Source of the DNA: a virus
Lineage: Duplodnaviria > Caudoviricetes
Length of the DNA: 35,043 bases
Strand: one strand, 5' to 3'
IMG/VR virus record: IMGVR_UViG_3300044724_007274
Span: 1-35,043 of that record
This document shows, one piece after another, positions 7,584-35,043 of this stretch. The notes below the pieces were generated by a model. The model saw only the letters and a program-made list of their open reading frames with translations. It searched no databases and was not told the origin of the DNA. The stretch's first letter is position 1. The number at the start of each line of letters is the position of its first letter. Both the position numbers and the translations under genes were made by a program.

Positions 7584-7877
7584 CTACTCTTCCTCCCCGT
7601 TGTCGTTGAGGTTATCGTAGATAGCGTCAATGTCTGCTGAGGAGATAGTTTCAGTTTGCTTACTAGTCTTAGCCATAAGTGAAGCAACCTTTACTAGTTG
7701 TTCGTTGGAGCGCTGTAAGGTTTCTAGGTACTTGGCTACAATAAGACCTTGACGACCATGGTCTGCCCTTCCTTGATGAATGTCTTGGCAGATTTCATCA
7801 AGAGCAGTGTTGGTCGCCTCTCGGTCAAGTCTAATGTTTTTTATTGCTTCTTCTAGAAGTTTTTCATATTTCGCCAT
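7584..7877 (-). CDS. Hypothetical helical phage protein (97 aa)
   Basis: Tightly coupled ORF downstream of the sigma factor gene. Confidence 0.7.
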   Translation of the reverse strand: MAKYEKLLEEAIKNIRLDREATNTALDEICQDIHQGRADHGRQGLIVAKYLETLQRSNEQLVKVASLMAKTSKQTETISSADIDAIYDNLNDNGEEE

Positions 7878-8541
7878 CGTTCCAATCGGACTTAAAGCCC
7901 CTATACCTTACTTTTAGTTTTGTGAGGACGGTTGCGATTTGTTTTGTGTTCAAATCGGTAATCTCCCTCATGTATAGATAAATAGCCTTTTTATTGAAAA
8001 TTTCTATCTGGTCAGAGTGTTCAAACAGCACCTTGATGGCGTTGATGACCTTTACTTCGTTTTCTTTCTCGGCTGCTTCGTACCACTCGTCAATGTTCTC
8101 GCGAAGATGGGCGAAGAACTCTGTGCGTGCTCTTTCGTGCTCGTATGGTATGTGGTCGGTAAGGGGGTGCTCTAAGTTCTTTGACTCGTCAATGGGAGTC
8201 TCAGTTTTTAAACGCTTGGTTGTTTTCTTTACTTTGTGGATAAACCAGTTCTTGGTAACGACTGAAAAGTAAGAGAAAGCCTTAGAGCCCTTGTCGGGGT
8301 CGTACTTATCGAGAATAGTGACTAACCAAGCTTTACATTCTTCACGGAGGTAATCGATGTTTGGAAGAGTTGTGAACTTGTATGTGTAGATAATTTTATC
8401 AACAAGCTCGTCAAACGCAGGGTGAATAAACTCGATGTAGAGTTTTTCTTTTGTGTAGCGGTCTGTTGTTTTACAGTATTTAACTATGGCGTCCTCATGG
8501 ACTTTTGTAAAATACTGTCTTTTAGTTCTCTTCTTCGGCAT
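7864..8541 (-). CDS. Phage RNA polymerase sigma factor (late/gp55-like)
   Basis: Region-2-like segment ILDKYDPDKGSKAFSYFSVVTKNWF and N-terminal QYFTKVHEDAIVKY; 225 aa. Confidence 0.75.
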   Translation of the reverse strand: MPKKRTKRQYFTKVHEDAIVKYCKTTDRYTKEKLYIEFIHPAFDELVDKIIYTYKFTTLPNIDYLREECKAWLVTILDKYDPDKGSKAFSYFSVVTKNWFIHKVKKTTKRLKTETPIDESKNLEHPLTDHIPYEHERARTEFFAHLRENIDEWYEAAEKENEVKVINAIKVLFEHSDQIEIFNKKAIYLYMREITDLNTKQIATVLTKLKVRYRGFKSDWNDGEI

Positions 8542-11361: not shown

Positions 11362-12233
11362 GCTGTCCTGCTCGCCGGGTTGGATAAGTATAGCTGATAG
11401 TCTGTCGTTAATTGTTCAGTTAAAACCTTACTAGAAAAATTGCGAGGGTGACCATGACCAAGATTATAAAATTCTATGTTGTTTCCAACGTCGTGCAAAA
11501 CATAATCCCAGAATTCTAAGTATTGCTCGTAATACTTTTTTTCTATGTTATCTTCTGTATTTCCAGATTCAATTGTGCCACTACCTCTTTTCACCCCCTC
11601 AAAAGCATGTTGGTACTTTTCCGCTTCGGCGTCTCTAACATAACCATCCATGCCAATAACTGAAATAGCTTTTGGAGACAAGTTACATAAAAGAGAAATT
11701 ATTCTAACAACTGCTCCAATCTTTGAATGGTATCTGGTGTGCGCCCAGACAACTCGGTTTGGGTATTTATCTTTAAAGTTTTTAAGTTCTTCTAAATTTC
11801 TGCCTATGTTTTCAAAGCAGAATAAGGTGTTACTATCTTCAACGTAATCTAAGAATCTGTTGCTGGAGATGTCAACCTCATCTCCGATAATAGCTAAATC
11901 AGCGCCCATTTTTGTGATTGAATCGTTTAAAAAAAAGTGATTACAACTTACAACGTAGTCATAATCTTCGCGCAATGCCGGTAGTTTGCTTGCAGAGGGA
12001 CCGCCGCCGATAACAAGAATTGATGAATTTGTAAAACTTGAAAAGAGCTTGTTCTTTTGATACATAACTTCTGCGTTTACAACTACTTCGCCGCCGCCGA
12101 GAAATGGTACTATGTTCTGCTTCACATAGTCTAGACCACGAAAGGGGTTCTTGACAAAACCAAAGCGGTCGTAAATAAAAGAACTGTTAGCTGGTGAGTT
12201 GTGTTTCCAAGTTTTTTCGCTAGTCCATCTCAT
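11358..12233 (-). CDS. Putative nonulosonic acid transferase (CstII/GT42-like or Maf/DUF115-like fold)
   Basis: VIGGGPS...DYVVSCNHFF...VIGMDGY parallels CstII AGNGPS...DVFRCNQFY...SGIDFY; directly downstream of a NeuB gene. Confidence 0.6.
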   Translation of the reverse strand: MRWTSEKTWKHNSPANSSFIYDRFGFVKNPFRGLDYVKQNIVPFLGGGEVVVNAEVMYQKNKLFSSFTNSSILVIGGGPSASKLPALREDYDYVVSCNHFFLNDSITKMGADLAIIGDEVDISSNRFLDYVEDSNTLFCFENIGRNLEELKNFKDKYPNRVVWAHTRYHSKIGAVVRIISLLCNLSPKAISVIGMDGYVRDAEAEKYQHAFEGVKRGSGTIESGNTEDNIEKKYYEQYLEFWDYVLHDVGNNIEFYNLGHGHPRNFSSKVLTEQLTTDYQLYLSNPASRTA

Positions 12234-12252
12234 AATTTTTACCCTCTAACTT

Positions 12253-13260: not shown

Positions 13261-13270
13261 TTTACCCTCT

Positions 13271-14605: not shown

Positions 14606-14625
14606 GTCCTAAGTTTAACACACGA

Positions 14626-15588
14626 CTATAAGCTTGTTAAGAAATGCAGCGGCAGGTTTAAGATTAGAGGGTGCAGCCTTTCTAATACTGGCAGTGAAGC
14701 TCCGGTTGAATAATACTTCATCTTGTGCAACATCGGATAAAGACGAGATAATCCTGTCTCTTGAATTATTCTGTTAGCCTGCTCGGTCAAAGTTGTCGCA
14801 AAGTAATAAGATGATTTTTGATCATGGGGTAACAAGGTGTGTCTACAAATTAAATTTTCATAGTTCTTTTTTCTTACTTCTAATAATTCTTCATACCTTT
14901 TTATCTGAGTGAGAGCTATCGTTGCATTCAAGTTGTTCATGTAAAACTTAAATCCGCTTGTCTCTACATCATAAGTTGCCCCATCATTAACTCTACCAAA
15001 ATTTCGATACAGTAAAAAATAATCGGCAGCTTTTGAATCGTCTGTTGAAATCAACCCACCATCCGAAGTGCAGATAGGTTTGTAAGGGTGAAAAGAAAAG
15101 AAAGTAAAATCAGATTGAATTGTTGGTGTCACACAATGTGCGCTGTCAACAACAATTATTTCATCTCCCACAAGGTCAAAATTAGCAATACTGCTTACGC
15201 CACCATAAAGAATTGGCATCACTACCACTCTGTTTTTTGTTGGCTTGCGAATACTCTTATAGTGTTTAGAAGAGAACTGTAAATCTTCTTGCACATCAAC
15301 AAAAAAGAGGTTGTGCCCAAAGTGCTTTGCTGCCCAGGCTGGAGAAGTAAATCCAAGTGATGGGGTGTAAACGTCACATTGACCATGCACCTCACGCAGA
15401 TAAGCAAAAATCATAAATGCTGCTGCGGAGGCAGAGTTTGTTGAGATGTTATGCCTTTTGTTTGAAAATTTAGCGAACTCTTTTTCAAATAAGCCAACAT
15501 TATCACCGAAGCCCAACTGACCAGAAGAAACGACACTTGCTATTTTTTCGGTGTCCTCTTCATTAATCATGGTCTGAAACAACTTCAT
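14626..15588 (-). CDS. DegT/DnrJ/PseC-like PLP-dependent sugar aminotransferase
   Basis: VVDSAH and FSFHPYKPICTSDGG (PLP lysine); ATGA overlap with the upstream gene. Confidence 0.9.
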   Translation of the reverse strand: MKLFQTMINEEDTEKIASVVSSGQLGFGDNVGLFEKEFAKFSNKRHNISTNSASAAAFMIFAYLREVHGQCDVYTPSLGFTSPAWAAKHFGHNLFFVDVQEDLQFSSKHYKSIRKPTKNRVVVMPILYGGVSSIANFDLVGDEIIVVDSAHCVTPTIQSDFTFFSFHPYKPICTSDGGLISTDDSKAADYFLLYRNFGRVNDGATYDVETSGFKFYMNNLNATIALTQIKRYEELLEVRKKNYENLICRHTLLPHDQKSSYYFATTLTEQANRIIQETGLSRLYPMLHKMKYYSTGASLPVLERLHPLILNLPLHFLTSL

Positions 15589-16571
15589 TGGCACTCTAAT
15601 CCTTTGTTAATCAATGAGATTAATTTCTGTGTGTCGTGCTGTACCCAGAGACCAGAGTTGAATTCTTGACCCTCGTATTTGCTAAATTGTTGATACTTTT
15701 TATTAGTATACTGTGGTCTCACCTGTAATAGATTTGCTCCGTCGACTTCATAGGTGAATGGCAGTTCTGTTTTTGAAAGCATGTCTTCGTGGAGTTTTTC
15801 CCCAGGTCTAATACCAATAACTTTTGTGTTTATTTTAGTGTTTGTAATCTCGCCAATCGCTTCAACGCACTTTGGCAATGTGTATGAATCAATTTTTGGA
15901 ATAAACACCTCGCCGCCATAAGCATTAATTAGGGAGTCAAGAACGGTATCCACGGCATCCTCAAGTGTAAACAAGAACCTTGTCATCTCATTTGAAGTTA
16001 CATTAATTGTCTCACCTCTGGAAACTGCTGCCATCCACAATGGAATGAAAGAACCCCTGGATGCGATTACGTTACCATAACGAACTGAAGCAAAAATGGT
16101 AGAGTTTGAGTTGTGGTCGTAATTCGTAAAAATCCTTTCGGCAATGAATTTTGAAGACCCATAAACATTAACCGGCTGGCAGGCTTTGTCGGTAGAAATC
16201 AACATACACTTCTCCACCCCTGCAAGTAAAGAAGAAATGGCGACGTTTTCTGAACCTGCAATGTTGGTTTTCACACACTCATCGGGGTACAACTCCATGT
16301 CGTCAACCCTTTTTAGGGCAGCGGTGTGAATAACATAATCAGGCTTATAGAGCATCATAGAGGTCTTTAGTTTTTCTAAATCCCTTACATCACCGATTAC
16401 TCTTTTTATTTCTTTATCTTTGCCAAAATACAGGGCTTGTTTTCCCTCATCTCGGCTATAGATAATAATTTTACAGTTTAGCTTTTTTAATCTTTTGATT
16501 AATGCCCTTCCCAAAGAGCCTGTGCCACCTGTGATAAAAACAGTCTTACCAGAAAAAAAATTACTTCTCAT
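15585..16571 (-). CDS. pseB: UDP-GlcNAc 4,6-dehydratase, PseB/FlaA1-like
   Basis: ITGGTGSLG, SRDE, HTAALK, STDKA..PVNVYGSSK, RYGNVIASRGS and GIRPGEKLHE motifs; ATG at 16571. Confidence 0.85.
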   Translation of the reverse strand: MRSNFFSGKTVFITGGTGSLGRALIKRLKKLNCKIIIYSRDEGKQALYFGKDKEIKRVIGDVRDLEKLKTSMMLYKPDYVIHTAALKRVDDMELYPDECVKTNIAGSENVAISSLLAGVEKCMLISTDKACQPVNVYGSSKFIAERIFTNYDHNSNSTIFASVRYGNVIASRGSFIPLWMAAVSRGETINVTSNEMTRFLFTLEDAVDTVLDSLINAYGGEVFIPKIDSYTLPKCVEAIGEITNTKINTKVIGIRPGEKLHEDMLSKTELPFTYEVDGANLLQVRPQYTNKKYQQFSKYEGQEFNSGLWVQHDTQKLISLINKGLECQ

Positions 16572-17247
16572 TTTTTGCCGCCTTGTATAGACTTTCGCAC
16601 ATTTTAAATTGCCACTCGTAATCAATGTCCAGGCACTCTCTCTCTGCCATCGACCACAACTCTATGTCATTTGGTTTATTAAAATCTCCCATCCATACGC
16701 CTTGACCAATCTTCTCTAGCGAGCCAGCGTAAAGACAGTGTGCTGCCTCTCTAATAATCTTTGCTGTCTTGGTGTTCATAACGTCTTCTTTCAGTGGCGT
16801 TAGAAAGGTGCCGTCTTCATCCCAGAAATAATTCTTTTTGTCCATCACGGCAAACATACCATCAGTGTCAGACTTTAGGTAATCGTTAAAAAATCCCTCA
16901 ATTGTCTCTGTCTTTACAAACGGACAACAGGCATTAATCAACACAACATACTTTTGAGGAATCTCATCCCACCACTCATAAATCTCAGTGAGTGGCGTTC
17001 CCTCTGACATTGCGGATTTTTCACTTCTGTTAAAAACATTAAAAGGATACTTGGAACACAAATCCTTCAACTCTGGCTCATAAACAGAGCACCAAACATT
17101 CTGATTTGGAATACTTGACTTTTCCAGCTTTTCTAATACTATGTCCATCAAAGTTGTGTCCGCAAAAGGACGAATCATCTTTTGCGGGCATCTTTGAGAA
17201 GAAAGTCTTGCTTGAATAATAACTGCAACGTCTTCTACTTTTTTCAT
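16561..17247 (-). CDS. neuA: Acylneuraminate cytidylyltransferase (NeuA/PseF family)
   Basis: IIQARLSSQRCPQKMIRPF N-terminal motif and LDIDYEWQF. Confidence 0.85.
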   Translation of the reverse strand: MKKVEDVAVIIQARLSSQRCPQKMIRPFADTTLMDIVLEKLEKSSIPNQNVWCSVYEPELKDLCSKYPFNVFNRSEKSAMSEGTPLTEIYEWWDEIPQKYVVLINACCPFVKTETIEGFFNDYLKSDTDGMFAVMDKKNYFWDEDGTFLTPLKEDVMNTKTAKIIREAAHCLYAGSLEKIGQGVWMGDFNKPNDIELWSMAERECLDIDYEWQFKMCESLYKAAKNEK

Positions 17248-17900
17248 TTTTTACCTCTACAAAAGACTGTTTGGCTGGAACTTGCATGTACGCTATCAAA
17301 GTATTTCTTGACCATAGTCAAAAGTTCTTGTCGGTCGGATAATGGACCGTGTATTTCAAATGACATGTTGAGTATTTTATCCCACAATTTGTGTTTCTCA
17401 ATACAATCAAAAATTTCATACTCAGAGCCCTCGCAATCTAATTTTAAGAAATCGATTTTTTCTATTTTGTTTTGTTTTACAAATTGGTCAAAACTAATCC
17501 AATCGACTTTACTTTCATTCCACTCTGCTGTAAATTTTTCTCTATTAAGATAAGTTGAAGTATCAGAATCAAAAATCGGCTTATGACCACCGGGATTTTC
17601 AACGTTCTTATAAACACCAACGGGCGCATTGTCGCCAACAATAGCTAAATTTTCAACGACGACGTTATCAAAATCTTTTGTCTTATCAAGACAGAAGTCA
17701 TAATTTTCTTTTATTAGCTCAAAAGCGTGAATTTTTGATTGCGGAAACTTGTTTGCAGCCCACACAGTAAAAACACCAACATTCGCACCAATGTCAACAA
17801 TTGTTAATTCTTCTGGGTCTTCTGGGTTCCAAAATTCAAATCCATAAACATCTTTCCCGATGACCTCTTTTTCCATCTTGTTGTACCACTTTTGGTTCAT
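17244..17900 (-). CDS. FkbM-family SAM-dependent methyltransferase
   Basis: IVDIGANVG, AFE, FLKLDCEGSEY and FEIH motifs. Confidence 0.88.
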   Translation of the reverse strand: MNQKWYNKMEKEVIGKDVYGFEFWNPEDPEELTIVDIGANVGVFTVWAANKFPQSKIHAFELIKENYDFCLDKTKDFDNVVVENLAIVGDNAPVGVYKNVENPGGHKPIFDSDTSTYLNREKFTAEWNESKVDWISFDQFVKQNKIEKIDFLKLDCEGSEYEIFDCIEKHKLWDKILNMSFEIHGPLSDRQELLTMVKKYFDSVHASSSQTVFCRGKK

Positions 17901-17902
17901 TT

Positions 17903-18739
17903 TTATCCTCTTAGTTTTTTACGAAATGGAAGTTCCGTATCGGTGACTCCAATTGTCCCGTCTCCAAGAGCCTGCTCAAGCTCTCTAACGCCCCTTACAA
18001 GCTTAATAAGCCCTTGTGGCTCTACAGAAGACAATTGGTCTGTTCCCCACATTGTTCTATCAAGAGTAATGTGTCGTTCAATAATCTCTGCGCCCAACAT
18101 AACTGTAGCAACAGAAGTACCAAGACGGAATTCATGTCCACTGTAGCCAACCTTACAGCCGTAACGGTCTTTAAGGGTTTTAATGCATGACAGGTTTAAC
18201 TCGTCCACTGGAGCGGGGTAACTGCTGTTGCAATGTAATAAGGCAAATTCTGTGCCCTCTTCTCTCATCCACTCAACTGCTTTATCAATCTCCTCTACGG
18301 TACTCATACCAGTAGAAACAATTAATTCTTTGTTTCTCTCGGCAGACCACCTAGAGCTAGCCCTAATCAACTCTTCGTTTGTAAGCATAGCTGAAGGGAT
18401 TTTAATAAAGGGGATTTCGTAATTTGATAAAAATTGTAGGCTGTCCAAATCCCATGGAGATGCAGACCACTCAACACCCTTCTCTTTGCAGTATCTATCA
18501 ATCTCGTCGTACTCATCTTTCTCAAACTCTACCTTGTATTTGTACTCAAGGTAGGTCATCGTGCCCCATGGCGTCTCTCTCATTACATTTTTTTGATGCT
18601 CTGGAACACAAACGTCTGGATTTCGCTTTTGAAACTTGACTGCATCACAGCCAGCTAATGAGGCTACATCGATAAGTCTTTTTGCGTTCTCTAGCGAGCC
18701 GTTGTGGTTAATACCAATTTCTGCGATTATGTATGTCAC
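17903..18739 (-). CDS. neuB: NeuB-family nonulosonic acid synthase, short form lacking the SAF domain
   Basis: IIAEIGINHNG, AVKFQKR, SASPWD, GYSGHE and IERHITLDR motifs; 278 aa. Confidence 0.9.
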   Translation of the reverse strand: MTYIIAEIGINHNGSLENAKRLIDVASLAGCDAVKFQKRNPDVCVPEHQKNVMRETPWGTMTYLEYKYKVEFEKDEYDEIDRYCKEKGVEWSASPWDLDSLQFLSNYEIPFIKIPSAMLTNEELIRASSRWSAERNKELIVSTGMSTVEEIDKAVEWMREEGTEFALLHCNSSYPAPVDELNLSCIKTLKDRYGCKVGYSGHEFRLGTSVATVMLGAEIIERHITLDRTMWGTDQLSSVEPQGLIKLVRGVRELEQALGDGTIGVTDTELPFRKKLRG

Positions 18740-20730
18740 AATTTCTCCCGTAGAATGCCTTCATAAAGGCTACTAATGTCTGATACTATTGTAAGCGAAA
18801 TTCCACTTTCTTTTAACCAATAAAACATCTCTTTTGTTGCTGCTCTAGTGGTTTCTATTTCCCAATCAAGAATGTCACCACGATTCACAAGACCTTGTGT
18901 GTTGCCGTAAAAGTGTTTGTAATTGTCTTCATCAACTTTATTATAAGTCAAATCCCATCCCAATACAACTATTTTTTTAACACCAAGATGAACCGCAGTT
19001 TGTATTACAGTTTCATACATTATGCCTGGACCACATGGTCTTTGGGCTTCCAGTGGGTAATCTTCAAACTTTTTTGTAACAGCTAAAAACTCATTGTCTA
19101 TTTCTGTTCTTATTGGAATCTTAAAAAATAAGTCGTCGTGCTGCAAAGCTGACCATCTCATGCCCTTGTCATAATTTGAACTTCCTACGACAATTGGGTT
19201 TGATTCTTTATAATCGTAATGCACACCCGCGTTGGGGCTTGGCAGGTTTGAACAATTAAAGAAGTGAAAGTCTACCACCTCTGGGCAATACTCGTAGGCT
19301 TGCTTAACTGCGAAAACAAGCTTATCAGATAATTTTTCTTTTAACTGTTTCCTGCTATAGTCCTTCAATGAGGGACCACAGTTTAAGATGTAGCAAGTGT
19401 CGCCCTTATAAGAGTCTTTTAAAAGCGAGACTTTTTTCTCCAGACTTTCCATGGAGGAAAGCTTAGATTTCAATCGATTAGTGGTGCTTTTTGGAGAAGA
19501 GATAAGCGGTGTAGCTTTCTCAAAACTAAAAGAGTCTGTAAGGATTCTTTTTATGTTGTCCTTGCCACAATGGTCACTTAGCTTTTTAGAGTTGTTTTTT
19601 GCAATTGCAGCTAACTCTTCTCTATTGTCAAACGCATACCTCATTTTTTCCATCAAGGACAACACGTCAGGCTCATAATAGTTTGAACCACATTCATAGT
19701 TTGGAAGTTTATAGCACGGAGCCAAATGGCAACCAAACATCAATGCGTTTGGCTCTAGGTAATCTACATGACCACCCTTATCTGGAACAATTACCGGCTT
19801 GTTAAACGATGCAGCCTCGGCAATAGTTAGCCCAAATCCTTCGCCTCTTGTTGCTAGAACAAAACAATCACTAACATCGTAGAGATAATTTATTTTTTCC
19901 CTTGACAAAACATCTACAAGGACATAAACAGGGCAGGCGGGTGGTGTGTTTTTTTCATCCGTAAAGACCCCTGCTTTAATTGTTTTTATTTGGTCTGCTA
20001 TTTGCTTAAATGCTGTTGAACCCTCTTTGCTAGTGTTATCAACGTATGTTTTAATCACCAAAGCAACATCTGTCTGGCTCTTAAATTCTGAAAAGTATGC
20101 CCTCAGCAATGGCTCAAAGCCCTTGCGGTGACCCCATTGACTCATTGCAAAAAAAGTAAACTTCCCATCGAGTGAAGGGAGTTTTACAGCCTTCTTGGCT
20201 GTATTTTCAACTGGACTGATGTAGTGCGGCAAGAGTTCAGTTTCGATACCAGTTTTTTTGTAGGATTCGCAATTCCAACGTGATGGAACAAAATTAATCT
20301 TTGTGTTGTGCTTCTCTAGCACCCCTTTCCAATACGAAGGTATTTTGTCTGTTTCCCAAGTGGTAATGCTGTGATTCTCGCTACAATTATCAATAAGAGT
20401 CTTAAAGAGGCGAAATGACTCCTTAAGTTGTGGAGGCAACCTATCCAAGTTTTCCATCCATGTCATTACCGGAGGAGGCAAATGCCAAAGAACAGAATAA
20501 TCACTTTCTTGAATTTTGTCTACTATAGCCTTTGTTTTAATCTCGTGTTTTTCAATTAAATCTAGCACAGAGTCAGGTGCAGAATTTTTTTGTTCAAAAT
20601 TTATTGACAGGGTAAAAAGATTGTATCCGCTTTCCCTCTCTAATTCAGATAGAATCTCCAAATAACCTCGTGCAGCAGAAGCATAACCCGAAGCATCTCG
20701 AAATTGCCCAACAAATACTAAGTTTTTCAT
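18736..20730 (-). CDS. GT4 glycosyltransferase fused to a C-terminal Maf/DUF115/CstII-like domain
   Basis: N-terminal SGYASAAR...RKG...RGEGFGLTIAEA; C-terminal CYILNCGPSL...AVHLGVKKIVVLGWDL...HFY. Confidence 0.8.
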   Translation of the reverse strand: MKNLVFVGQFRDASGYASAARGYLEILSELERESGYNLFTLSINFEQKNSAPDSVLDLIEKHEIKTKAIVDKIQESDYSVLWHLPPPVMTWMENLDRLPPQLKESFRLFKTLIDNCSENHSITTWETDKIPSYWKGVLEKHNTKINFVPSRWNCESYKKTGIETELLPHYISPVENTAKKAVKLPSLDGKFTFFAMSQWGHRKGFEPLLRAYFSEFKSQTDVALVIKTYVDNTSKEGSTAFKQIADQIKTIKAGVFTDEKNTPPACPVYVLVDVLSREKINYLYDVSDCFVLATRGEGFGLTIAEAASFNKPVIVPDKGGHVDYLEPNALMFGCHLAPCYKLPNYECGSNYYEPDVLSLMEKMRYAFDNREELAAIAKNNSKKLSDHCGKDNIKRILTDSFSFEKATPLISSPKSTTNRLKSKLSSMESLEKKVSLLKDSYKGDTCYILNCGPSLKDYSRKQLKEKLSDKLVFAVKQAYEYCPEVVDFHFFNCSNLPSPNAGVHYDYKESNPIVVGSSNYDKGMRWSALQHDDLFFKIPIRTEIDNEFLAVTKKFEDYPLEAQRPCGPGIMYETVIQTAVHLGVKKIVVLGWDLTYNKVDEDNYKHFYGNTQGLVNRGDILDWEIETTRAATKEMFYWLKESGISLTIVSDISSLYEGILREKL

Positions 20731-21962
20731 AGTACCATTACTTGTTCTTCTGGTTCTTCAATTCCCAAACTTTCAACAAACTGACTGTTTAGCTTGCTTT
20801 CTTCAAAGGTTTCTAAAACCCACTTTTGCAAAGATTTGGAAAGCCCCTGATAGACATGATGTTCGTTTTTCATTTTACGAAGCGCCATCTTATACGAGCC
20901 CTCCCTAGCAAACGCCCATTGTGAGTTTGGTTGAATAACCCCTTCCCAATGCGCCTCTCGTTGTACAGGAAGAACATCAAAGTCCACTTTTAAGAATTTT
21001 CCTTTCTTTTTTACCTTGCCCTTCTTGTCCTTTTCTGGCACATACAAGAAGTCACATTGACCTGACCACCCGATGGTAATAATCGGTAGCCCAGCAATGG
21101 CAGCGTCAAAAAGTGGAAGACCGTATCCCTCACCGTGAGCGATGTTGATAAAAGCCTTAATTTTTTCGTGTCTGTAAAGCGCCTGCATCTCCGTTTCGCT
21201 CATGTAACCATGAAGGAGTGTCACAGAGCACTTTCGGTCCTTATACGGCGCGAGAAGAGCTTGTAGACGGTTTTGTGTGTATTGTCGGTCAATAGTGCAA
21301 TTCTTGAAAGAGTTGGTCTTTACAACAAGTCCCACTTCTTGGTCGATGTTCTCCTCAACGAACCATCGAATAGCATTCTCAAAGTTCTTTCTTGGACCCC
21401 ACTGGCTGACTAGAAGATAGTTAAAATCGTGCGGGAGGTCGAGTTCCACCTCTGTGGGGTTTTGTGGGCGAACAGGGTAGTTCACAACCTCTACCGGCTT
21501 CTCTAGTTTGTATGGGAATTTGTTACCGTTGCGGTCCTGTGCTTCCACCACAGTATTGACAAAAACGTCCTTAGAGTGGTTGCTAACAACGATTATCTTG
21601 TCCATAACCTCGTTACACTTCTGTAACCACTGTGGGGCAACCTTCGTTGTCTCAATGCCCGCTGTATAACCAATGTTGACCGGAGCCATCTTTTCAAATT
21701 CGTTTGGAATAGTAACCTGAAGGGAGATGTCAAACTGTATCTGACCAGCGTTGATGTAGTGTGCCGTTTTTTGAATTGTTTTAATTAACCACTCTCTTTC
21801 TTCGTCATCTTCGATAATGTGGTTTGACTTTCCCCATTCCAAATTCATAAGATAAATGTCGAAAAGGTCTGGTCGTGAGCGAAGTGCTCTGAGAGCAAAT
21901 CGTGTTTGTTCTCCGTATCCAGTTTGTGATAGGGCTGGACCCTTTACAATAATCTTCTTCAT
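20727..21962 (-). CDS. GT4 glycosyltransferase
   Basis: TGYGEQTR, WGPRKN and HGEGYGLPLFDA motifs; ATG at 21962 (ATGA coupling). Confidence 0.88.
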   Translation of the reverse strand: MKKIIVKGPALSQTGYGEQTRFALRALRSRPDLFDIYLMNLEWGKSNHIIEDDEEREWLIKTIQKTAHYINAGQIQFDISLQVTIPNEFEKMAPVNIGYTAGIETTKVAPQWLQKCNEVMDKIIVVSNHSKDVFVNTVVEAQDRNGNKFPYKLEKPVEVVNYPVRPQNPTEVELDLPHDFNYLLVSQWGPRKNFENAIRWFVEENIDQEVGLVVKTNSFKNCTIDRQYTQNRLQALLAPYKDRKCSVTLLHGYMSETEMQALYRHEKIKAFINIAHGEGYGLPLFDAAIAGLPIITIGWSGQCDFLYVPEKDKKGKVKKKGKFLKVDFDVLPVQREAHWEGVIQPNSQWAFAREGSYKMALRKMKNEHHVYQGLSKSLQKWVLETFEESKLNSQFVESLGIEEPEEQVMVL

Positions 21963-23221
21963 ACTGATAGTTGCTCCCAAGCCTTGTATCCTTTGCGGGT
22001 ATCCCAAGAACCATTCTCTTCAAGAACTTCGTCCATAAACTCTACCCAGTTTTTCTCAAGCTGTTCAAAGGAGTAGTTCTTCTCAACGTGCTTTCTGCCC
22101 TCTTCACCTATTTGGCGGCGAGCTTTGTGACTCTTTGACCACAGTTCATAAAGAGCGTTAACAAGGTCATCCTCGTTCATTCTATCCTCGCGGATAAATG
22201 GAATTTCTTGCGAGCCAATAATTGCTTTTGAAGCTGGCTCAATCCCAACGCCAAAAAAGTTTTTGCCGTCCGTGACTTGCTCTTGAAGACCACCCGTCAT
22301 GTTAACAACAATAGGCGTTCCACAAGCAAGGGATTCCAATGTTGCGAGACCAAAACCTTCAGCATCTGAAATGTTTACAGTTACATCACAGGCGTTGTAC
22401 AGTCTTGCAAGGGCTGCGGCTGGCATTTTTTGTCTACTAAACTTTACCTGACCGTCTGTTAAACCTAGCTCCTTAATAATCGCATCCAAGTCCTGACCGT
22501 GTGGGTCTTTAGTGTCGGTGTGCATGATAAGCACAGCCTGATCGTCTCCAACACGGTCCAAGAATTTCTTAAACCAAAAAATAAGTGAGCCAGATTGTTT
22601 ACGTCTCGCGTTTCTATTGTTCCAAAAAATTGTAAACTTATCTGCGTCTTCGCCAAAGTTTTCTTGTCTAAACTTCTGCCTTTCTTCTTCTGGGAAGAGT
22701 GAAAAGTCCGGTGGCACAGCGTGAGGAATGTACTTGCGCTTTACCTCTGGTGCTACCGTAGCAACAATGTCATCAGTAACTTTGCTGATGGTTGCAATAG
22801 CATCGTTAGAAAGGTAGAACTTTCTATTGAACTTTGGATAAGGGTAGTTGTCCCAAACATGGTAGTATACCAGAGGACAGTGTGAGCGAATCTCTTCTTC
22901 GATTTCCCACAACCAAGCCCAAAAGCGTGGGTCGGTCATAATCCAAACAGCGTCGGGTTTCTCTACCCAAAGCGCTTCTCTGACTATGTGAACGTCTCCA
23001 TACCCTTTAATTGGGTAAATGATTAAATCATCTCCCCATTCTTGAGTTTTTTGCGGCTGGTAGTTCTCATGTTGAATAGCCCCGCCAAAGCACAGGAACT
23101 TATATCGTCCGGTCTTCAGCAGGGCTTCAACGAAGTATTTGGTTTGTGTGCCGACACCCGAAGGTGACATTGGGTGGTCAGATAAGACCAATATTTTTTT
23201 CTTCTGTATGTCCTCTGGCAT
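21959..23221 (-). CDS. GT4 glycosyltransferase
   Basis: SGVGTQ, NRNARRK and AEGFGLATLESLACGTP motifs. Confidence 0.9.
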   Translation of the reverse strand: MPEDIQKKKILVLSDHPMSPSGVGTQTKYFVEALLKTGRYKFLCFGGAIQHENYQPQKTQEWGDDLIIYPIKGYGDVHIVREALWVEKPDAVWIMTDPRFWAWLWEIEEEIRSHCPLVYYHVWDNYPYPKFNRKFYLSNDAIATISKVTDDIVATVAPEVKRKYIPHAVPPDFSLFPEEERQKFRQENFGEDADKFTIFWNNRNARRKQSGSLIFWFKKFLDRVGDDQAVLIMHTDTKDPHGQDLDAIIKELGLTDGQVKFSRQKMPAAALARLYNACDVTVNISDAEGFGLATLESLACGTPIVVNMTGGLQEQVTDGKNFFGVGIEPASKAIIGSQEIPFIREDRMNEDDLVNALYELWSKSHKARRQIGEEGRKHVEKNYSFEQLEKNWVEFMDEVLEENGSWDTRKGYKAWEQLSV

Positions 23222-24064: not shown

Positions 24065-24315
24065 GGGTTTTTGTCTAAATCTTTGAATGCTTGTGCGTAG
24101 CCTCTAATAAAATTTTCTTCTGCCACGACTGAAAGGAACTCTGGAAACTCATCTGCGAAGATTTTTACTATGTCTTCAACAGTGACTTCAGGTTCTTGTG
24201 GGTGGAGTGTTTCACCAATGTAATCAACAATGAGTTCTTTTAGCTTTGTCTCTCTCTTGACAAAAACGTGTTTGAGGTCGTTTTCTACAACCTGCTCTTC
24301 TGTTATTGTTTCCAT
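24061..24315 (-). CDS. Hypothetical phage protein (84 aa)
   Basis: Coupled to phoH; ends EFPEFLSVVAEENFIRGY... Confidence 0.75.
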   Translation of the reverse strand: METITEEQVVENDLKHVFVKRETKLKELIVDYIGETLHPQEPEVTVEDIVKIFADEFPEFLSVVAEENFIRGYAQAFKDLDKNP

Positions 24316-25637
24316 TATAATACCTTTGAAGCAAGGGTTGCTACTTTGGAGCGTTCGCCCTTTTGCAGCGAGATGTGTCCTGCTAACTCATAAGGCTTGA
24401 ACTTTTCAAGTGCATAAGTTAGACCGGATGAGCGTGCATCGATGTAAACGTTATCGATTTGCTCAACGTCGCCTGTGAGAACTATTTTTGTTCCCTCGCC
24501 AACTCTGGTTATTATAGTCTTTAACTCATGTATTGTTAAGTTCTGGGCTTCATCGATAATGATGAAGGCATTTGCGATAGAACGACCGCGAATGTAGGTG
24601 AGTGCTTCTATCTCGATAAGACCGCGTTCAGAGTACATTTCCAGTGCTACACGGTCATCTCCCATTAGGAACTTCAAATTATCTTGGATAGGAGCAAGCC
24701 ATGGAGCCATTTTTTCTTCCAAGGTTCCCGGTAGGAAGCCAATATCCCTTCCCATAGGCATAACAGGTCGGGATACAACTAATTTTTTATAAATAGGCTC
24801 GTATTGACCCTCGTCGAGAGTCTGTTCCATACCTGCTGCGATGGCTAGTAGAGTCTTGCCGCACCCTGCTGCGCCTACAAGAGAGACAATCGGGACGTTG
24901 GGGTCCATAAGTAGGTTCAAGGCAAAAGCCTGTTCCTTGTTTCTTGGTTTTACGTCCCAGATTCCGTGTTTGTACTCATCCACTCTTACAAGTGGTTTGT
25001 TGTAACTTATAAAGCGAGATAGAGCGGTCTTCTTATCATTGGAAGAAGAAACAAGCATTACAAACTCATTGGGAAGTAATTTTTTTTCTTCTTTGTCGAT
25101 AAAAAGCTTCTCGCCTTGGTAGAAGTGGTCGATGGTCTGGTCATCGACTAAATGTTTGGTAAAGCCTGTGTAAATGTTCTCTTCGCGCTTTACGACTTGG
25201 TTTTCATCGTATCCCTCACAGTCAATACCCAGCGCATCACAACGTACACGCAGGTTGATGTCGAGAGAAACAATAATAACTTTTCTTGTTGGGTTGTTTT
25301 GCTTTTCGTTTAGAGCGGCTGCAATAATAATGTTGTCAGGGTCTCTCTTATCCATTTCTGGTGGAAGAGCAGATACATCTGAATAAACAGCCCTAATGAT
25401 GCCAAAACCTTTGTCGATTCGGATACCTTTGTGAAGGTTTCCTTTTGCACGAAGTTCGTCAAGAAGACGAATAGTGTGTCGGGCGTTTGCACCTACGCCG
25501 TCCTGTCTTTTTTTGTGTTTATCGATTTCTTCAAGAACTTTGAGTGGCAGTATAATGTCGTTTCTGCCAAACTTTTTGAAGCAGTGCGAGTCGGTTAGAT
25601 AAACATTTGTGTCGAGCACATAAGTTCGCTTTGCCAT
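24315..25637 (-). CDS. phoH: PIN-PhoH protein (N-terminal PIN domain plus PhoH ATPase)
   Basis: VLDTNV...EEID (PIN); GAAGCGKT, GFLPG, YIRGRS, IIDEAQN and GDVEQ (PhoH). Confidence 0.93.
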   Translation of the reverse strand: MAKRTYVLDTNVYLTDSHCFKKFGRNDIILPLKVLEEIDKHKKRQDGVGANARHTIRLLDELRAKGNLHKGIRIDKGFGIIRAVYSDVSALPPEMDKRDPDNIIIAAALNEKQNNPTRKVIIVSLDINLRVRCDALGIDCEGYDENQVVKREENIYTGFTKHLVDDQTIDHFYQGEKLFIDKEEKKLLPNEFVMLVSSSNDKKTALSRFISYNKPLVRVDEYKHGIWDVKPRNKEQAFALNLLMDPNVPIVSLVGAAGCGKTLLAIAAGMEQTLDEGQYEPIYKKLVVSRPVMPMGRDIGFLPGTLEEKMAPWLAPIQDNLKFLMGDDRVALEMYSERGLIEIEALTYIRGRSIANAFIIIDEAQNLTIHELKTIITRVGEGTKIVLTGDVEQIDNVYIDARSSGLTYALEKFKPYELAGHISLQKGERSKVATLASKVL

Positions 25638-25642
25638 TATTA

Positions 25643-25653
25643 TAAATAGTTCC
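25643..25653 (-). promoter_or_regulatory. Candidate phage late-promoter motif GGAACTATTTA
   Basis: Identical 11-mer at 30614-30624; both copies follow a terminator and precede a gene. Confidence 0.55.
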
Positions 25654-28233: not shown

Positions 28234-28309
28234 TGGTGCCGAAAGAGGGACTTGAACCCCCAACCTACCGCTTACAAGGCGGTTGCTCTACCAGTTGAGC
28301 TATTCCGGC
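28234..28309 (-). tRNA. tRNA-Thr(UGU)
   Basis: GCCGGAA...ACCGC-CTTGTAA-GCGGT...GTTCAAGTC...TTTCGGC-A-CCA; 76 nt. Confidence 0.95.
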
Positions 28310-28325
28310 GTTTATTTACTTATGT

Positions 28326-28353
28326 AGTATAACAGGTTTTACGAGTTTGTCAA
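28326..28353 (-). promoter_or_regulatory. Sigma70-type promoter for tRNA-Thr and dut
   Basis: TTGACA-16 nt-TATACT with an extended TG. Confidence 0.75.
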
Positions 28354-28907
28354 CTCTTTTCTTTGGACTCGTTGCTCGCATACTTCACACCCATGATAGT
28401 TCCTATAATACTGAAGGAGTTAGTGAGAAGGATGCCGAATAAGTTTGACCAAGCATTGCCAATTAGAGTTGTGTCAAACTTCGTAATCATCGCAAAGATG
28501 TAGAGGGCAGTGGTTGTCACTCCTACGCCCATAATGACCCACAGAGCGACGGAAACTATCTTGCCTATGAGTTCAAACTGAGTGCGCTTTTGCAGCACGT
28601 CTAAGTCATTCTGTGCTGTTTTCTTTGCTTCCTCTGCAAGACCGAGGGCTTCTTTAAGTTCGTCCATGAGAGTGTCATTTTTTTCTTTTTCCTCAAGGAG
28701 TTCTTTATATTGTCGCTGGACTTGCTTGGTTATCTCCAACCTTTTCTTGCGGTTGTCTGTGTCTTGCTCTTTTGCCTTTTTAAGATAGTCGGCAAAAGCT
28801 TTATCGTCTTCAGCATCTATTATCTTGATAATGTTACCTTCAAGATAAATGTTTCTTTTCTCGGCAACTTCTATAAGTGCCGACTTCATTTCTTGTGAGA
28901 ACTTCAT
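28350..28907 (-). CDS. Coiled-coil protein with two C-terminal transmembrane helices (third gene of the two-component operon)
   Basis: Charged heptad N-terminus, then IVSVALWVIMGVGVTTTALYIFAM and LFGILLTNSFSIIGTIMGV; ATGA-coupled to the receiver gene. Confidence 0.8.
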   Translation of the reverse strand: MKFSQEMKSALIEVAEKRNIYLEGNIIKIIDAEDDKAFADYLKKAKEQDTDNRKKRLEITKQVQRQYKELLEEKEKNDTLMDELKEALGLAEEAKKTAQNDLDVLQKRTQFELIGKIVSVALWVIMGVGVTTTALYIFAMITKFDTTLIGNAWSNLFGILLTNSFSIIGTIMGVKYASNESKEKS

Positions 28908-29335
28908 TTGTAGACCTTGAATGGTGCTTTTCTGTCCTTATAACCTGCGTAATCTCTACGGAACTCTTCAAGGCGTGGTTCGATTTCATCTGACTTTACA
29001 ATCCAAAACTGAGCACCTGCGGAAACTGCTTTTGTTATTTCTGCTTCGTCGGTTGAAGATGAGATGATGCCAATAACAACTCCGTTGCCGTACTCGTAGT
29101 TAATTTTACGAATAAGTTCAATGCCATCGAAAGATGAACCAATAATGTTTAGGTCAACAAAAACACACTCTGGTTTATCTTCTGGGTGACCTTTCCAATC
29201 CTCAAACATCTTTGCTGCTTCGTCTGAGGAAGAGATACTTTGCAAGTCTAGCGTGATGTCCAATAGAGAGCAAGCATCCTCAAAGACGAGATGGAAAAGG
29301 TTTTCGTCATCAACTAATAGAATAGAGTTAATCAT
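28904..29335 (-). CDS. Stand-alone response regulator receiver (CheY-like)
   Basis: LLVDDE, phosphoacceptor FVDLN, ISSS and WIVK; no output domain. Confidence 0.9.
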   Translation of the reverse strand: MINSILLVDDENLFHLVFEDACSLLDITLDLQSISSSDEAAKMFEDWKGHPEDKPECVFVDLNIIGSSFDGIELIRKINYEYGNGVVIGIISSSTDEAEITKAVSAGAQFWIVKSDEIEPRLEEFRRDYAGYKDRKAPFKVYK

Positions 29336-30585
29336 TTTATTTTTATCCTCATCATGGTTCCTGTTTCTTGTTTCTTTGCAGAAACTTCATAACCGTGTTC
29401 TTTCAAAATGGCGGTTGTAATAGATAGTCCTAATCCTGTGCCTTTCTCTTTCTGGTCTTGCTTTCTGAGATAAGGTTTAGAAAGTTCTTCAAAATCTTCT
29501 TGAGACATTCCTCTGCCGTTGTCTATTACAGCAAGGGTCTCATCATCGACCATTTTGATCATAATCATTTTTGTTTTTGAGTCGTTGTACTTCAAGCCAT
29601 TGCGAATCATGTTATCGATGGCTGTACAAAAAAGTGCTTCATTTACTTCCAGAACTGGTAAGTTTCCGTCAATAACAACTTGGTCAGAGTAAGAAGTCAA
29701 ACTCAAGTAGTTTCTCAAAATTTCTTTTGTGTCGTGAGGCTTTCTATTGAGCGAGGCATCTTTGCGAACCAAGTTGGTAAACTCAAAGACACCGCTATAA
29801 ACCTTCTGTGTGTGTGCCAGACCGTCTTTTATTAGTTTTAGAGGCATGGATAGGTTTAGCTGCTTTGCGACGTCTGGCTTCTTTTCTAGCCGTCTTTCTA
29901 AGGACTTGATGCCTCTTGGTAGATAAGTGTTGATGCCTGAGTGCATGTCGTGTCGCAAAATCTTTGCGGCATGTTCCAGATAGTCATTCTTTTTATCTAC
30001 TTGTTGTAATGTTTCTACAAGGTTGGTTACATCTTGTCTAACTGAAAGGAAGCCTGAAAGCTTACCTTGGTCATCAAAGTTCGCCATAATCCATGTCTTT
30101 ACATGGTAAAGGCTACCGTCTTTCGCTCTGTTAGTCACAATGTCATGCCAAATGGACTTGTACTTGACTGTGACGGTATACATGTTTCCCCAATAAGAAC
30201 GGGGTTGTAAGCCTGAGTTTAGGAGTTTGTGGTCTTGTCCTAAAAGTTCCTGTGCTAAATAACCTGAAACCTCGCAGAACTTATCGTTTACTTCTGTGAT
30301 TCTGCCTTGGCGGTCTGTTCGTGAAACAAGGCAAGATTCATCTAAAATTCTTTCTAATGCTTTTTTCTTTACTTTATCTCGCTGATACCTTCCTATTATC
30401 TCCATTAAGATAACACCGAAAGGCATGATAAATAAAGAAATGCAGGCGGTTCCAAAGTGAATCACATGGTGAGTCAAAGGAAGCGCGCCTGCCTCTAACA
30501 TGACTTGCATAACAAAGTAGCAAGACATAATGAAAGTACAAACGAATAATGATATTTTACTTTTTAGTGAAAACTCTGCGAACAT
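29332..30585 (-). CDS. Membrane PAS-domain sensor histidine kinase
   Basis: Two N-terminal TM helices; PAS (TDRQGRITEVNDKFCEVSGY...NRAKDG); H-box LRHDM; N-box NMIRNGLKY; DNGRGM; GTGLGL. Confidence 0.92.
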   Translation of the reverse strand: MFAEFSLKSKISLFVCTFIMSCYFVMQVMLEAGALPLTHHVIHFGTACISLFIMPFGVILMEIIGRYQRDKVKKKALERILDESCLVSRTDRQGRITEVNDKFCEVSGYLAQELLGQDHKLLNSGLQPRSYWGNMYTVTVKYKSIWHDIVTNRAKDGSLYHVKTWIMANFDDQGKLSGFLSVRQDVTNLVETLQQVDKKNDYLEHAAKILRHDMHSGINTYLPRGIKSLERRLEKKPDVAKQLNLSMPLKLIKDGLAHTQKVYSGVFEFTNLVRKDASLNRKPHDTKEILRNYLSLTSYSDQVVIDGNLPVLEVNEALFCTAIDNMIRNGLKYNDSKTKMIMIKMVDDETLAVIDNGRGMSQEDFEELSKPYLRKQDQKEKGTGLGLSITTAILKEHGYEVSAKKQETGTMMRIKIK

Positions 30586-30613
30586 GAAGAACTATTCTCT
30601 TGGAATGCCTTAC

Positions 30614-30624
30614 TAAATAGTTCC
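30614..30624 (-). promoter_or_regulatory. Candidate phage late-promoter motif GGAACTATTTA upstream of the kinase
   Basis: Identical to 25643-25653; lies just after a terminator. Confidence 0.55.
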
Positions 30625-30634
30625 TCATTTTAAG

Positions 30635-30665
30635 AAAAAAGGACTCTGCCCAAAGAACAGAGTCC
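30635..30665 (-). terminator. Rho-independent terminator
   Basis: GGACTCTG-9 nt-CAGAGTCC followed by TTTTTT, downstream of the Hc1 gene. Confidence 0.85.
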
Positions 30666-30701
30666 CGCATCGCTTCGTAGTCTGAGCGACCTTTATACAT
30701 C

Positions 30702-30890
30702 TTAGTTATCGCTGTTGCGAACTTCAAGAACCTGCTTACGAAGGGTCTTTAGCTCATTGACAGCAAACTGCGCGGTCTTACGCACACGAGTTCCAGCAGC
30801 CTTGTTGCCAGAGTCAGTCTTCTCTGCGTCAGCAAGAGCCTGTGTGAGTTGGTCTACAACTGTTTGTAGTGTGGTTGTCACTGTACTCAT
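30702..30890 (-). CDS. Histone H1-like Hc1-family DNA-binding protein
   Basis: DAEK..SGNKAAGTRVRK...LKTLRKQV signature. Confidence 0.8.
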   Translation of the reverse strand: MSTVTTTLQTVVDQLTQALADAEKTDSGNKAAGTRVRKTAQFAVNELKTLRKQVLEVRNSDN

Positions 30891-31756: not shown

Positions 31757-31833
31757 TGGTACGGGTGGTGAGGCTTGAACTCACTATCTCTGCTTTATAA
31801 GAACAGTGCATTTACCAGTTATGCTACACCCGC
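31757..31833 (-). tRNA. tRNA-Ile(UAU)
   Basis: GCGGGTG...CTGTT-CTTATAA-AGCAG...GTTCAAGCC...CACCCGT-A-CCA; 77 nt. Confidence 0.9.
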
Positions 31834-33443: not shown

Positions 33444-34094
33444 CTATACTATTTCATCGACTAAGCCCCACTTTACGCACTTCGCAGAGTCGAGCCATAG
33501 GTCGTGTTTCAAAATCTCGTCCAGTTCCTTTTTTGGAATGGAACAATGTTCCTTGTAAATGTCCTTGATGCGGGACATTAGCATGTCCAAGTTTTCCATT
33601 TCATCCTTGAACTCTTCGTACTTGCCCCACATAACTGATGACAGTTGGTGGATAAGCATGAAAGAGTTTTGGTGAATGAAGCGCTTGTCTGCAACTACTG
33701 AAATAAGTGTAGCAGCGGAAGCGGCAGAACCGTCAATATAGGTGTGAACGGGCGTGCCGAGAGACTTAATCGTATCAACCGTTGAGAAGCCAGCAAAAAT
33801 GCTTCCTCCATAAGAGTTGATGTAGAGTTTGATAGGTACTTGGACTCCATACTTCACCTTTACTACTTGTAGGTCTTTATCCATTGTGCGGAGGGCTTTG
33901 TTGAGCAACTTTGCGTTGTCACCATTTACCTCTCCGTAAAACATAATGCAGTTGTCGTGAGAATCAACTGCGATGCCGGGGGGAGGACCAGAGGGTCCGT
34001 CATTTACAATAAAAATTTGAGGCTGTTTCTCCTCTGCTTCCTCTTGCTCTTTCTTTTTTTGGGTCTTACTATCTGCCCAATAATAATGTGTCAT
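33444..34094 (-). CDS. clpP: ClpP-like serine protease
   Basis: LYINSYGG, AASAA (catalytic Ser), FMLIHQ (His) and DLWL...GLVDEI. Confidence 0.88.
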   Translation of the reverse strand: MTHYYWADSKTQKKKEQEEAEEKQPQIFIVNDGPSGPPPGIAVDSHDNCIMFYGEVNGDNAKLLNKALRTMDKDLQVVKVKYGVQVPIKLYINSYGGSIFAGFSTVDTIKSLGTPVHTYIDGSAASAATLISVVADKRFIHQNSFMLIHQLSSVMWGKYEEFKDEMENLDMLMSRIKDIYKEHCSIPKKELDEILKHDLWLDSAKCVKWGLVDEIV

Positions 34095-34204: not shown

Positions 34205-34408
34205 CTAAGAAATTGCTTTTGAGGGGTCGATGTCGCAGTCATCAGAGATACTGCATATATACCAGTTTACACCAGTGCTGCCCATTAGTTCATGGCATTT
34301 TTGATAAGACCAAGAAGCACATTCGGCAAATGTCTTATCTTGTAATACAAAAATTTTTTTCTCTTCTCGTTTGAGTGTCGAAACAACAATGGTGTACTTT
34401 TTTTTCAT
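34205..34408 (-). CDS. Hypothetical protein (67 aa)
   Basis: ATG at 34408 with TAATG coupling; MKKKYTIVVSTL... Confidence 0.65.
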   Translation of the reverse strand: MKKKYTIVVSTLKREEKKIFVLQDKTFAECASWSYQKCHELMGSTGVNWYICSISDDCDIDPSKAIS

Positions 34409-35043
34409 TAGAACCAATTCTTTCCAAATACACAGTCTTTTGACTGCTTCCAGTAAATGAATCTCTTGCACTTATCTAGAGAATAAACTTTTAGAAGCTC
34501 GTCTCCAAAAGTTGATTCACCTTTGGTTAGACCTCTTTCATACTGAAAGTGCCACCACTCTGCTCCACCGTATGAGCCACCTCTGAAAAAAGAGCTACGA
34601 GCGCGGATAGAATGGAAACCGTGTTTTAGTGCAAGTGCTGTAAAGTCTACAAAAGTCCCTGTGACTTCTTTTTTGTTTAGTTTGGTCTTGCCACCAGAGC
34701 GGGTCACGTATGTGCCCTCGATGGTCATTTCCTCGCCTTCATCACAGCGCATCCAAACTCGCCAACGACGACCACCAATGTCTTCAATGACATAAGGGTC
34801 TTTGTCTGGCTTGTACATGCCTGTTGGAAGAGCCATGTCAAACGCTAGACCAACATAGTGCATAGACTTTTTAGAACGTGCTGCGCCTGACTTTGACGCC
34901 AAGCCTCTTCGACCACCAGCGGAGGTTAGATAACCACCAAGGTCTTGAACCTCTTGATAAAGCGCGTTATAAGCCTGTGCTGCGTCCGTGCGAAGTGTTA
35001 CACGAGTGTAGCCAGCCCTACCGGGGAACTTATCTGCTGGACA
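34408..35043 (-). CDS. Peptidase M15 (VanY/L-Ala-D-Glu type), endolysin candidate; N-terminus beyond the window
   Basis: Frame is open to the window edge (...LRTDAAQAYNAL...LTSAGGRR); SMHYVGLAFD and EWWHFQ zinc motifs. Confidence 0.85.
   Translation of the reverse strand, partial: CPADKFPGRAGYTRVTLRTDAAQAYNALYQEVQDLGGYLTSAGGRRGLASKSGAARSKKSMHYVGLAFDMALPTGMYKPDKDPYVIEDIGGRRWRVWMRCDEGEEMTIEGTYVTRSGGKTKLNKKEVTGTFVDFTALALKHGFHSIRARSSFFRGGSYGGAEWWHFQYERGLTKGESTFGDELLKVYSLDKCKRFIYWKQSKDCVFGKNWF

Follow-up and report, generated by a model that had tools for sequence, protein, structure and literature searches.

The virus record IMGVR_UViG_3300044724_007274 (Duplodnaviria; Caudoviricetes), a stretch of 35,043 nucleotides (nt) that is called the window here and to whose full length all coordinates refer, carries three adjacent genes for a sensor histidine kinase, a stand-alone receiver and a 185-amino-acid (aa) membrane protein of no known family. 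On the basis of sequence comparison, we lean towards the view that the three proteins form a closed His-to-Asp relay, made late in infection, that would take a redox-type input and tune the time of lysis. A broader reading, which we put forward tentatively and hold a little short of probable, is that an exchangeable phosphorelay of large aquatic phages reads the state of the cell and switches a virus-specific hairpin, which in turn would determine when lysis occurs. The relay would exist in three-part and one-part forms, the N-domain of its third protein would be an input module of a new type that docks receivers and is shared with cellular-type kinases, and the whole would be the first phage-encoded two-component lysis control. 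The time of lysis determines how large the burst is and how fit the phage; for a strictly lytic phage, holin/antiholin lysis inhibition is, to our knowledge, the established way of adjusting it. If the reading is correct, phages gauge the condition of the host through sensors that they encode themselves and respond without a transcriptional step, by a mechanism unlike T4 lysis inhibition or arbitrium. Signalling would also gain a new type of output, a membrane switch under the control of a receiver or a PAS domain.

Organization of the three-gene unit

The unit and its flanking signals, including the genes called as open reading frames (ORFs), are located as follows.
29332..30585, minus strand: sensor histidine kinase gene, 417 aa (ORF call, domain matches)
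28904..29335, minus strand: stand-alone receiver gene, 143 aa (ORF call, domain match)
28350..28907, minus strand: third gene, 185-aa membrane protein of no known family (ORF call)
30614..30624, minus strand: predicted phage late promoter, core ACTATTTA at 30621-30614, 28 nt before the kinase start
30640..30666, minus strand: intrinsic-terminator-like stem-loop between the unit and the upstream Hc1-like gene (12 pairs, 6 G-C, U-rich tail; consensus match only)
28326..28353, minus strand: sigma-70-like promoter that overlaps the stop codon of the third gene and points at tRNA-Thr (11/12 with TG)
28234..28309: tRNA-Thr, downstream of the third gene

Both junctions of the trio, kinase/receiver and receiver/third gene, were ATGA overlaps. 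Together with the ORFs and the domain matches, these overlaps confirmed an earlier note on this DNA, which had described three ATGA-coupled genes for a kinase, a receiver and a membrane coiled-coil protein. The note had also taken the trio as a transcription unit of its own. This stood for the 5' end, where the terminator-like stem and the late-type motif are located, but not for the 3' limit, since the search for terminators gave none behind the third gene and the downstream promoter does not end the transcript; it points at tRNA-Thr and is not part of the relay. A 9/12 sigma-70 site inside the kinase start was dismissed as being at chance level (15 found versus 10.7 expected). The guanine-cytosine (GC) content of the trio was 0.401, compared with 0.408 for the window.

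Conservation and distribution of the trio

Relatives of the kinase were found in at least 629 of 636 matched IMG/VR stretches, of which 80 were kept as the kinase-anchored locus set; a set anchored on the third gene also comprised 80 loci. These sets share loci, and together they represent 47 receiver lineages at 88% identity. The order kinase-receiver-third gene was present in 76 of the 80 kinase-anchored viral loci, and the four exceptions consisted of two contig ends and two real orphans (L063 and L069). From the other side, the kinase and the receiver lay upstream of the third gene in 75 of the 80 loci anchored on it, and the other five loci start less than 400 bases from the gene. Where DNA was available, the third gene always followed the receiver directly or after one inserted gene. 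Conservation of the third gene with the pair, on which the earlier note had staked its proposal, was thus seen in both scans. Third-protein homologue clusters made up 4,046 of 4,356 candidates.

The trio occurred in hundreds of aquatic viral contigs, versus none of 50,697 deposited phage records, in which the receiver and the third protein had no match and the kinase was matched by single domains only. A scan of 185,579 prokaryote genomes, one search pattern of which was present in 135 of 158 family members, gave three trio loci, all in metagenome bins. Profile searches of the phyla of two of these bins returned the bin itself as the sole match (1/124 and 1/301), and the 89-kb contig of the first, a Bdellovibrionota bin, has proteins in common with viral contigs. 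Capsid and sheath profiles had no match in the three bins, and L082 and L083 are thus not proven to be viral. A scan with the GC-rich receiver of L082 gave no match. L082 (G010:C75) is a 67% GC contig from a Gemmatimonadota bin, in which the trio stands among pentapeptide-repeat-like genes with a shared leader sequence. With three loci among all these genomes, two of them singletons in their phyla, the trio does not qualify as a common bacterial operon, the origin that the earlier note had named as a threat to its proposal, and the third protein appears to be restricted almost entirely to viruses so far. The trio contigs span about 26% to 67% GC, which suggests unrelated hosts. Within the lineage of the window phage the module is accessory, being present in 1 of 22 PhoH-related phage records and in neither of the two near-complete ones.

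The kinase and its PAS domain

The sensor part of the kinase contains the following feature, for which binding of flavin adenine dinucleotide (FAD) is predicted.
30025..30336, minus strand: PAS domain of the MmoS/Aer/NifL type, predicted to bind FAD (PDB matches and residue alignment)

The kinase matched PAS at residues 84-187 and HATPase_c at 319-416 (over the cut-off), and its residues 10-62 hold two hydrophobic helices, taken as its membrane anchor. The H box RHDMHSG (H212), the N box (324-330), the G1 box (355-359) and the G2 box (382-387) were all located, and these positions and the HATPase_c match confirmed that the kinase has the four boxes attributed to it. Pfam HisKA gave no match, the DHp domain being divergent. 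By pattern, the H box and G1 were each present in 166/166 distinct kinases, G2 in 142/166 and the N box in 138/166.

The best PDB matches of the PAS domain were 3EWK (E 1.5e-27), 8DIK and 2GJ3. Residues H119, N152 and R183 aligned with H53, N85 and R115 of Aer, which have been described as flavin-pocket residues that Aer shares with MmoS (PMC9668731). Tyr136 occupied the position of Aer W70, leaving no Trp to stack on the FAD adenine. This conservative change was shared by the family, with Tyr at that position in 45 of the 45 PAS domains parsed. Other kinases of the family used GAF, another PAS type or an extracytoplasmic part as sensor. FAD-based redox sensing is therefore the likely role predicted for the PAS domain of the window kinase, and not the rule of the family.

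A second kinase was present in 14/80 loci, often with an extracytoplasmic N-terminal part. In L031, L032, L039, L040, L042, L070 and L079 two kinases were followed by one receiver, and between the paired kinases stood a conserved 200-aa signal-peptide protein of no family, possibly a periplasmic input. YceI-like or patatin genes were found between the kinase and the receiver, or just upstream, in L024, L028, L053, L062 and L064. The trio of L008 (6001-8239) was unevenly related to that of the window (kinase 54%, receiver 82% and third protein 92% identical), which may reflect either module exchange between phages or a chimeric contig.

The stand-alone receiver

Response_reg was the sole domain of the receiver (over the cut-off), and no DNA-binding domain was present. 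Residues D9, D10, D61, S92 and K114 were invariant in 44/44 aligned relatives, as was the S92-S94 region, with a mean column identity of 77%, and D61 is the predicted phospho-Asp. The description of a receiver that keeps DD/D/S/K without a DNA-binding domain was thereby borne out. The C-terminal tail was also conserved (F139, Y142), with a Trp at the aromatic switch position. PDB matches were 3ILH, a bacterial regulator and the best match, and 4ZYL. Taken together, the kinase and the receiver carry the sequence features of a class I two-component system, and phosphotransfer between them is predicted.

Architecture of the third protein and its predicted role as output

Two parts of the third protein were distinguished.
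28692..28907, minus strand: residues 1-72, the N-domain; predicted to take the input and to dock the receiver
28380..28574, minus strand: membrane hairpin, residues 112-176, two hydrophobic helices (hydropathy)

The protein matched no family in Pfam, PHROG or NCBIfam. Its structural model consisted of a helical cap (residues 5-29), a long helix (36-142) and a return helix (146-184), with a predicted local distance difference test score (pLDDT) of 85.5 and a predicted template modelling score (pTM) of 0.38; the N-domain modelled alone had a pLDDT of 92. In helix 2 of the hairpin, a face of small and polar residues was nearly invariant (N155, T162, N163, S166, G169, T170 and G173). Fold searches with the full model and with the N-domain alone (best Z 5.9) returned generic helical matches only. 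One BFVD match was an uncharacterised homologue from an uncultured phage. In the ESM Atlas the protein fell into unnamed virus-only clusters, and the search there with the N-domain kinase was uninformative. The automatic ESM Atlas name 'GLE1-like' was rejected for lack of Pfam support, and JGI labels given to homologues, such as FlhF and FlaF, were discounted as noise from the coiled coil.

The role of the two parts was read from domain fusions, and only recurring fusions were counted as evidence; single-copy fusions (FecCD, RNA polymerase, glycosyltransferase, SOUL, TsaD and others) are probably chimeric and were left out. Four HisKA-HATPase kinases (P0247, P0251, P0257 and P0259) had the N-domain as their only input. 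These kinases look cellular and are probably the origin, or a second use, of the docking module. A Hymenobacter plasmid match to an N-domain kinase (25.6% identity), annotated as a hybrid receiver-kinase, was set aside. The hairpin, for its part, formed the only output behind PAS, PAS-PAS or GAF (examples P0121, P0122, P0164, P0175 and P0179). For the PAS-PAS-hairpin one-piece form, all 80 loci kept out of 253 relatives had this arrangement, and no kinase or receiver was found in the fetched flanks (0/80), as expected if the one-piece form substitutes for the relay. In a tree of 59 hairpins (92 columns, midpoint-rooted, rough support), the fused forms grouped inside the trio hairpins.

The coiled coil between the two parts pointed in the same direction. 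Among 163 third proteins examined, 137 were parsed, and in 133 of these the linker between conserved anchors was 45, 52, 59, 66, 80 or 87 residues long. The linker thus varies in whole heptads, so that its length is free and the helical phase is fixed, which is a feature of signalling coiled coils. The N-domain kinases, the hairpin fusions and the heptad linker together indicate the direction of signal flow and the hairpin as output; in the simplest reading, the signal would run from the receiver to the N-domain, along the coiled coil and into the hairpin. The proposal of the earlier note that the protein with two transmembrane (TM) segments is the output of the circuit was in this way supported. 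Mirror-distance correlations in 83 thinned triads (DHp-receiver 0.43, receiver-N-domain 0.38, receiver-hairpin 0.34, ATPase-receiver 0.13) were not used as evidence for the docking site, as their intervals overlap.

The late motif and the source phage

A candidate reader of the late motif is encoded in the window.
7864..8541, minus strand: gp55-like late sigma factor (phrog_234, E 9.7e-6)

Exact copies of GGAACTATTTA occurred twice in the window, at 30614-30624 and, before PhoH, at 25643-25653, and sites with two mismatches were at chance level (10 found versus 13.7 expected). The conserved core was ACTATTTA, since the two Gs of GGAACTATTTA were not both retained in the closest relatives. The placement of this core was analysed in G002, a 141-kb relative whose kinase is 98% identical to that of the window and which has T4-type terminase, portal, protease, capsid, neck, sheath and tube genes. 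Its ACTATTTA sites lay on the coding strand in 17/18 cases and within 60 nt upstream of an ORF start in 11/18 (about 4% expected per site), and the operons preceded by the motif included those for capsid/head, neck, sheath, the endolysin pair and the kinase. TATTTAT stood at the same place in many distant relatives, without comparison with chance expectation. By its site placement, ACTATTTA behaves as a phage late promoter, in agreement with the earlier note, which had placed a phage motif in front of the unit. The gp55-like sigma factor likely reads it. A single short motif before late genes and a gp55-like sigma factor, as in a T4-type late unit, were thus both present at the sequence level. 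The window also encodes a baseplate wedge gene, and the source virus is an uncultured T4-like phage. Marine metatranscriptome contigs were about 96-97% alike over most of 28366-30595; being contigs only, from one study and chosen for holding that stretch, they were not used as evidence of expression.

Association with lysis genes

The endolysin gene of the window is incomplete.
34408..35043, minus strand: peptidoglycan-binding endolysin gene, 3' part only, as the window ends within it; located about 3.8 kb upstream of the kinase

A complete 307-aa copy of this endolysin in L001 matched PG_binding_1 and endolysin PHROGs. Among the 47 trio lineages, 14 had the midpoint of a lysin gene within 1.5 kb. 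The near flanks contained 15 lysin genes in 135 kb, compared with 3 in 242 kb of far flank, which is 1.8 times more DNA (binomial p 5e-5). The lysins lay upstream or downstream of the trio and comprised GH19, amidase and lysozyme by Pfam labels, as well as a type that we take to be M15 from its motif. The one-piece form had a lysin within 1.5 kb in 60/80 loci and 6/8 lineages. In a PhoH control a nearby lysin was found in 0/39 lineages, a comparison that is biased, as the lysin profiles came from the neighbours of the trio. Four large carrier genomes had 0 to 2 PG_binding_1 matches each, which makes adjacency by chance of low probability. A protein of 200 aa without a Pfam or NCBIfam match (L080:5059-5667 and relatives) stood beside the trio and lysins in 11 lineages; its His...Ser-x-Gly-Cys pattern may resemble that of L,D-peptidases, and it was not counted as a lysin.

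Other candidate holins were located in the same neighbourhoods. The one-piece loci L171-L250 are lysis clusters with several small membrane genes and without a kinase or receiver, and in G002 the endolysin is preceded by a separate holin-like gene. Given an accessory module with other holin-like genes beside it, the third protein is more likely a regulator of lysis than the holin itself. The earlier note had left the output between lysis timing, exclusion and membrane state; of these, lysis gained genomic support from the adjacency of lysins.

Proposed mechanism and alternative explanations

In the relay that we favour, the FAD-type PAS domain would sense the redox or energy status of the host cell during infection and set the activity of the kinase, which is reasonably likely for the window, relatives using other sensors. 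The kinase would very probably phosphorylate D61 of its own receiver. The receiver, lacking an output domain, would then quite probably dock on the N-domain of the 185-aa protein, and with much the same likelihood the change would pass along the coiled coil in fixed register and switch the hairpin. On balance, the hairpin would be an accessory regulator of holin triggering, not the sole holin, acting by holin binding or by a change in membrane potential, and the signal may hasten or delay lysis. The parts are small and open to tests in E. coli, and the one-piece PAS-hairpin offers a test with a single gene.

Several observations weigh against this mechanism. On the input side, all three flavin-pocket motifs were found by pattern in 52/166 kinases, so that redox is not the single input of the family. 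The genomic context of the four N-domain kinases was not recovered, the metagenome scan giving trio loci and ordinary kinases. The orphan kinases of L063 and L069 were followed by neither the receiver nor the third gene over about 6 kb. With respect to lysis, 30 of the 47 trio lineages had no recognised lysin in the fetched DNA. The endolysin of the window lies about 3.8 kb from the kinase and beyond a terminator, and in the closest copies (L001, L003) the endolysin had no late motif in the fetched upstream DNA. The phages of the PhoH control may use other lysins, and the lineages are not fully independent. Neither by sequence nor by fold did the hairpin match a known holin or antiholin, and it matched no holin family in Pfam, PHROG or NCBIfam, fold searches being uninformative for helical hairpins.

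A closed relay could also end in a different output, in which the hairpin would act on the membrane by depolarisation or remodelling so as to exclude superinfecting phages, abort a competing phage or maintain the energy state of the host, and in which the adjacency of lysins reflects a shared late, envelope-related gene neighbourhood. The lineages without a nearby lysin, the distance of 3.8 kb in the window, the polar stripe of helix 2, which suits a small pore, and the second kinase with its often extracytoplasmic part would fit such an output. We regard it as unlikely, since lysins are concentrated beside the cassette and not spread evenly in the flanks, the one-piece form is next to a lysin in most of its loci, and a late promoter would presumably suit exclusion poorly. 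A direct role of the 185-aa protein as a signal-gated holin or pinholin, whose hairpin would be freed by the activated receiver to oligomerise into holes, is quite improbable. Its two membrane helices, the small-residue stripe including G169-x3-G173, the endolysin adjacency and the lack of another clear holin beside the endolysin of L001 and L003 are in its favour, but the module is missing from both near-complete related phages, the one-piece loci have other small membrane genes, and G002 has its own holin-like gene.

The kinase and the receiver might instead act on the signalling of the host, as a phosphate sink or by cross-talk with a host regulator, and the third protein would then be no more than an anchor or a source of upstream input. 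Serving as a phosphate sink is common among stand-alone receivers, and orphan kinases were found in L063, L069 and, on the opposite strand, L099. Against this, hairpins fused behind sensors take the place of the entire relay, the third gene keeps its place behind the receiver, and the GC range of the trio contigs suggests unrelated hosts; we give the idea little credence. Recent capture of a common bacterial operon without phage function is largely refuted and highly improbable. It could draw on the matches in three bacterial metagenome bins and on the bacterial origin of 3ILH, but is opposed by the rarity of the trio in a scan whose pattern covers most family members, its singleton status in the phyla of two bins, the viral-type proteins on the Bdellovibrionota contig, the phage late motif and a GC content close to that of the window.

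Comparison with known systems

The closest solved relatives of the PAS domain are those of MmoS, Aer and NifL, and the equivalents of the three Aer pocket residues are kept in the phage kinase. Unlike Aer, it has Tyr in place of W70; its FAD binding is predicted, and its output is a phage receiver and not chemotaxis, NifA or a transcription regulator. CheY, which acts on the flagellar switch, and receivers of the Rcp1/RphyB-like type are single-domain regulators that act by protein contact. The phage receiver resembles them in having intact catalytic residues and no output domain, and it differs in being encoded by a virus, next to a class I kinase of its own and a membrane protein dedicated to it. 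LytSR of Firmicutes is a two-component system that is tied to membrane state and governs the holin/antiholin-like LrgAB and CidAB. Unlike this bacterial, transcriptional system, the phage trio has no DNA-binding domain, and its control is predicted to be post-translational.

T4 lysis inhibition involves holin T and antiholin RI (PMC11413866). If our reading is right, the phage trio would be similar in that phage-made membrane proteins adjust the lysis time to a sensed condition. It would differ in that T4 uses a periplasmic antiholin bound to the holin and is not known to use a kinase, receiver or phosphorylation. The two systems have no component in common, and the hairpin had no sequence or fold match to T4 T or RI. 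No description of such a module was found in the literature on phage-encoded kinase-receiver systems, a search with most subscription papers and bioRxiv supplements outside its scope. In the available text of a 2026 review of phage communication (PMC13389391) the term 'two-component' does not occur, and in that of the moraphage paper (PMC12619734) neither 'kinase' nor 'two-component' occurs, although its supplements may list such genes.

Other features of the window

Three further genes were identified near the unit or with the same type of signal.
30702-30890, minus strand: Hc1 histone-like protein (domain match)
33444-34094, minus strand: ClpP (domain match)
24315-25637, minus strand: PIN-PhoH (domain match; same late motif, behind a terminator-like stem)

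A 13-kb glycan cluster was located at 9884-23221 on the minus strand. It encodes two NeuB synthases, a PseB-like dehydratase, a DegT aminotransferase, a cytidylyltransferase, three family-4-type glycosyltransferases and two FkbM methyltransferases, and likely makes nonulosonic-acid sugars for modification of the virion or DNA. At the position of this cluster, G002 has a different sugar cluster. The window also contains a tRNA-Ile with a TAT anticodon (31757-31833, minus strand), a type that is rare in bacteria, and ATA accounted for 167 of the 718 Ile codons in the minus-strand ORFs of the window.

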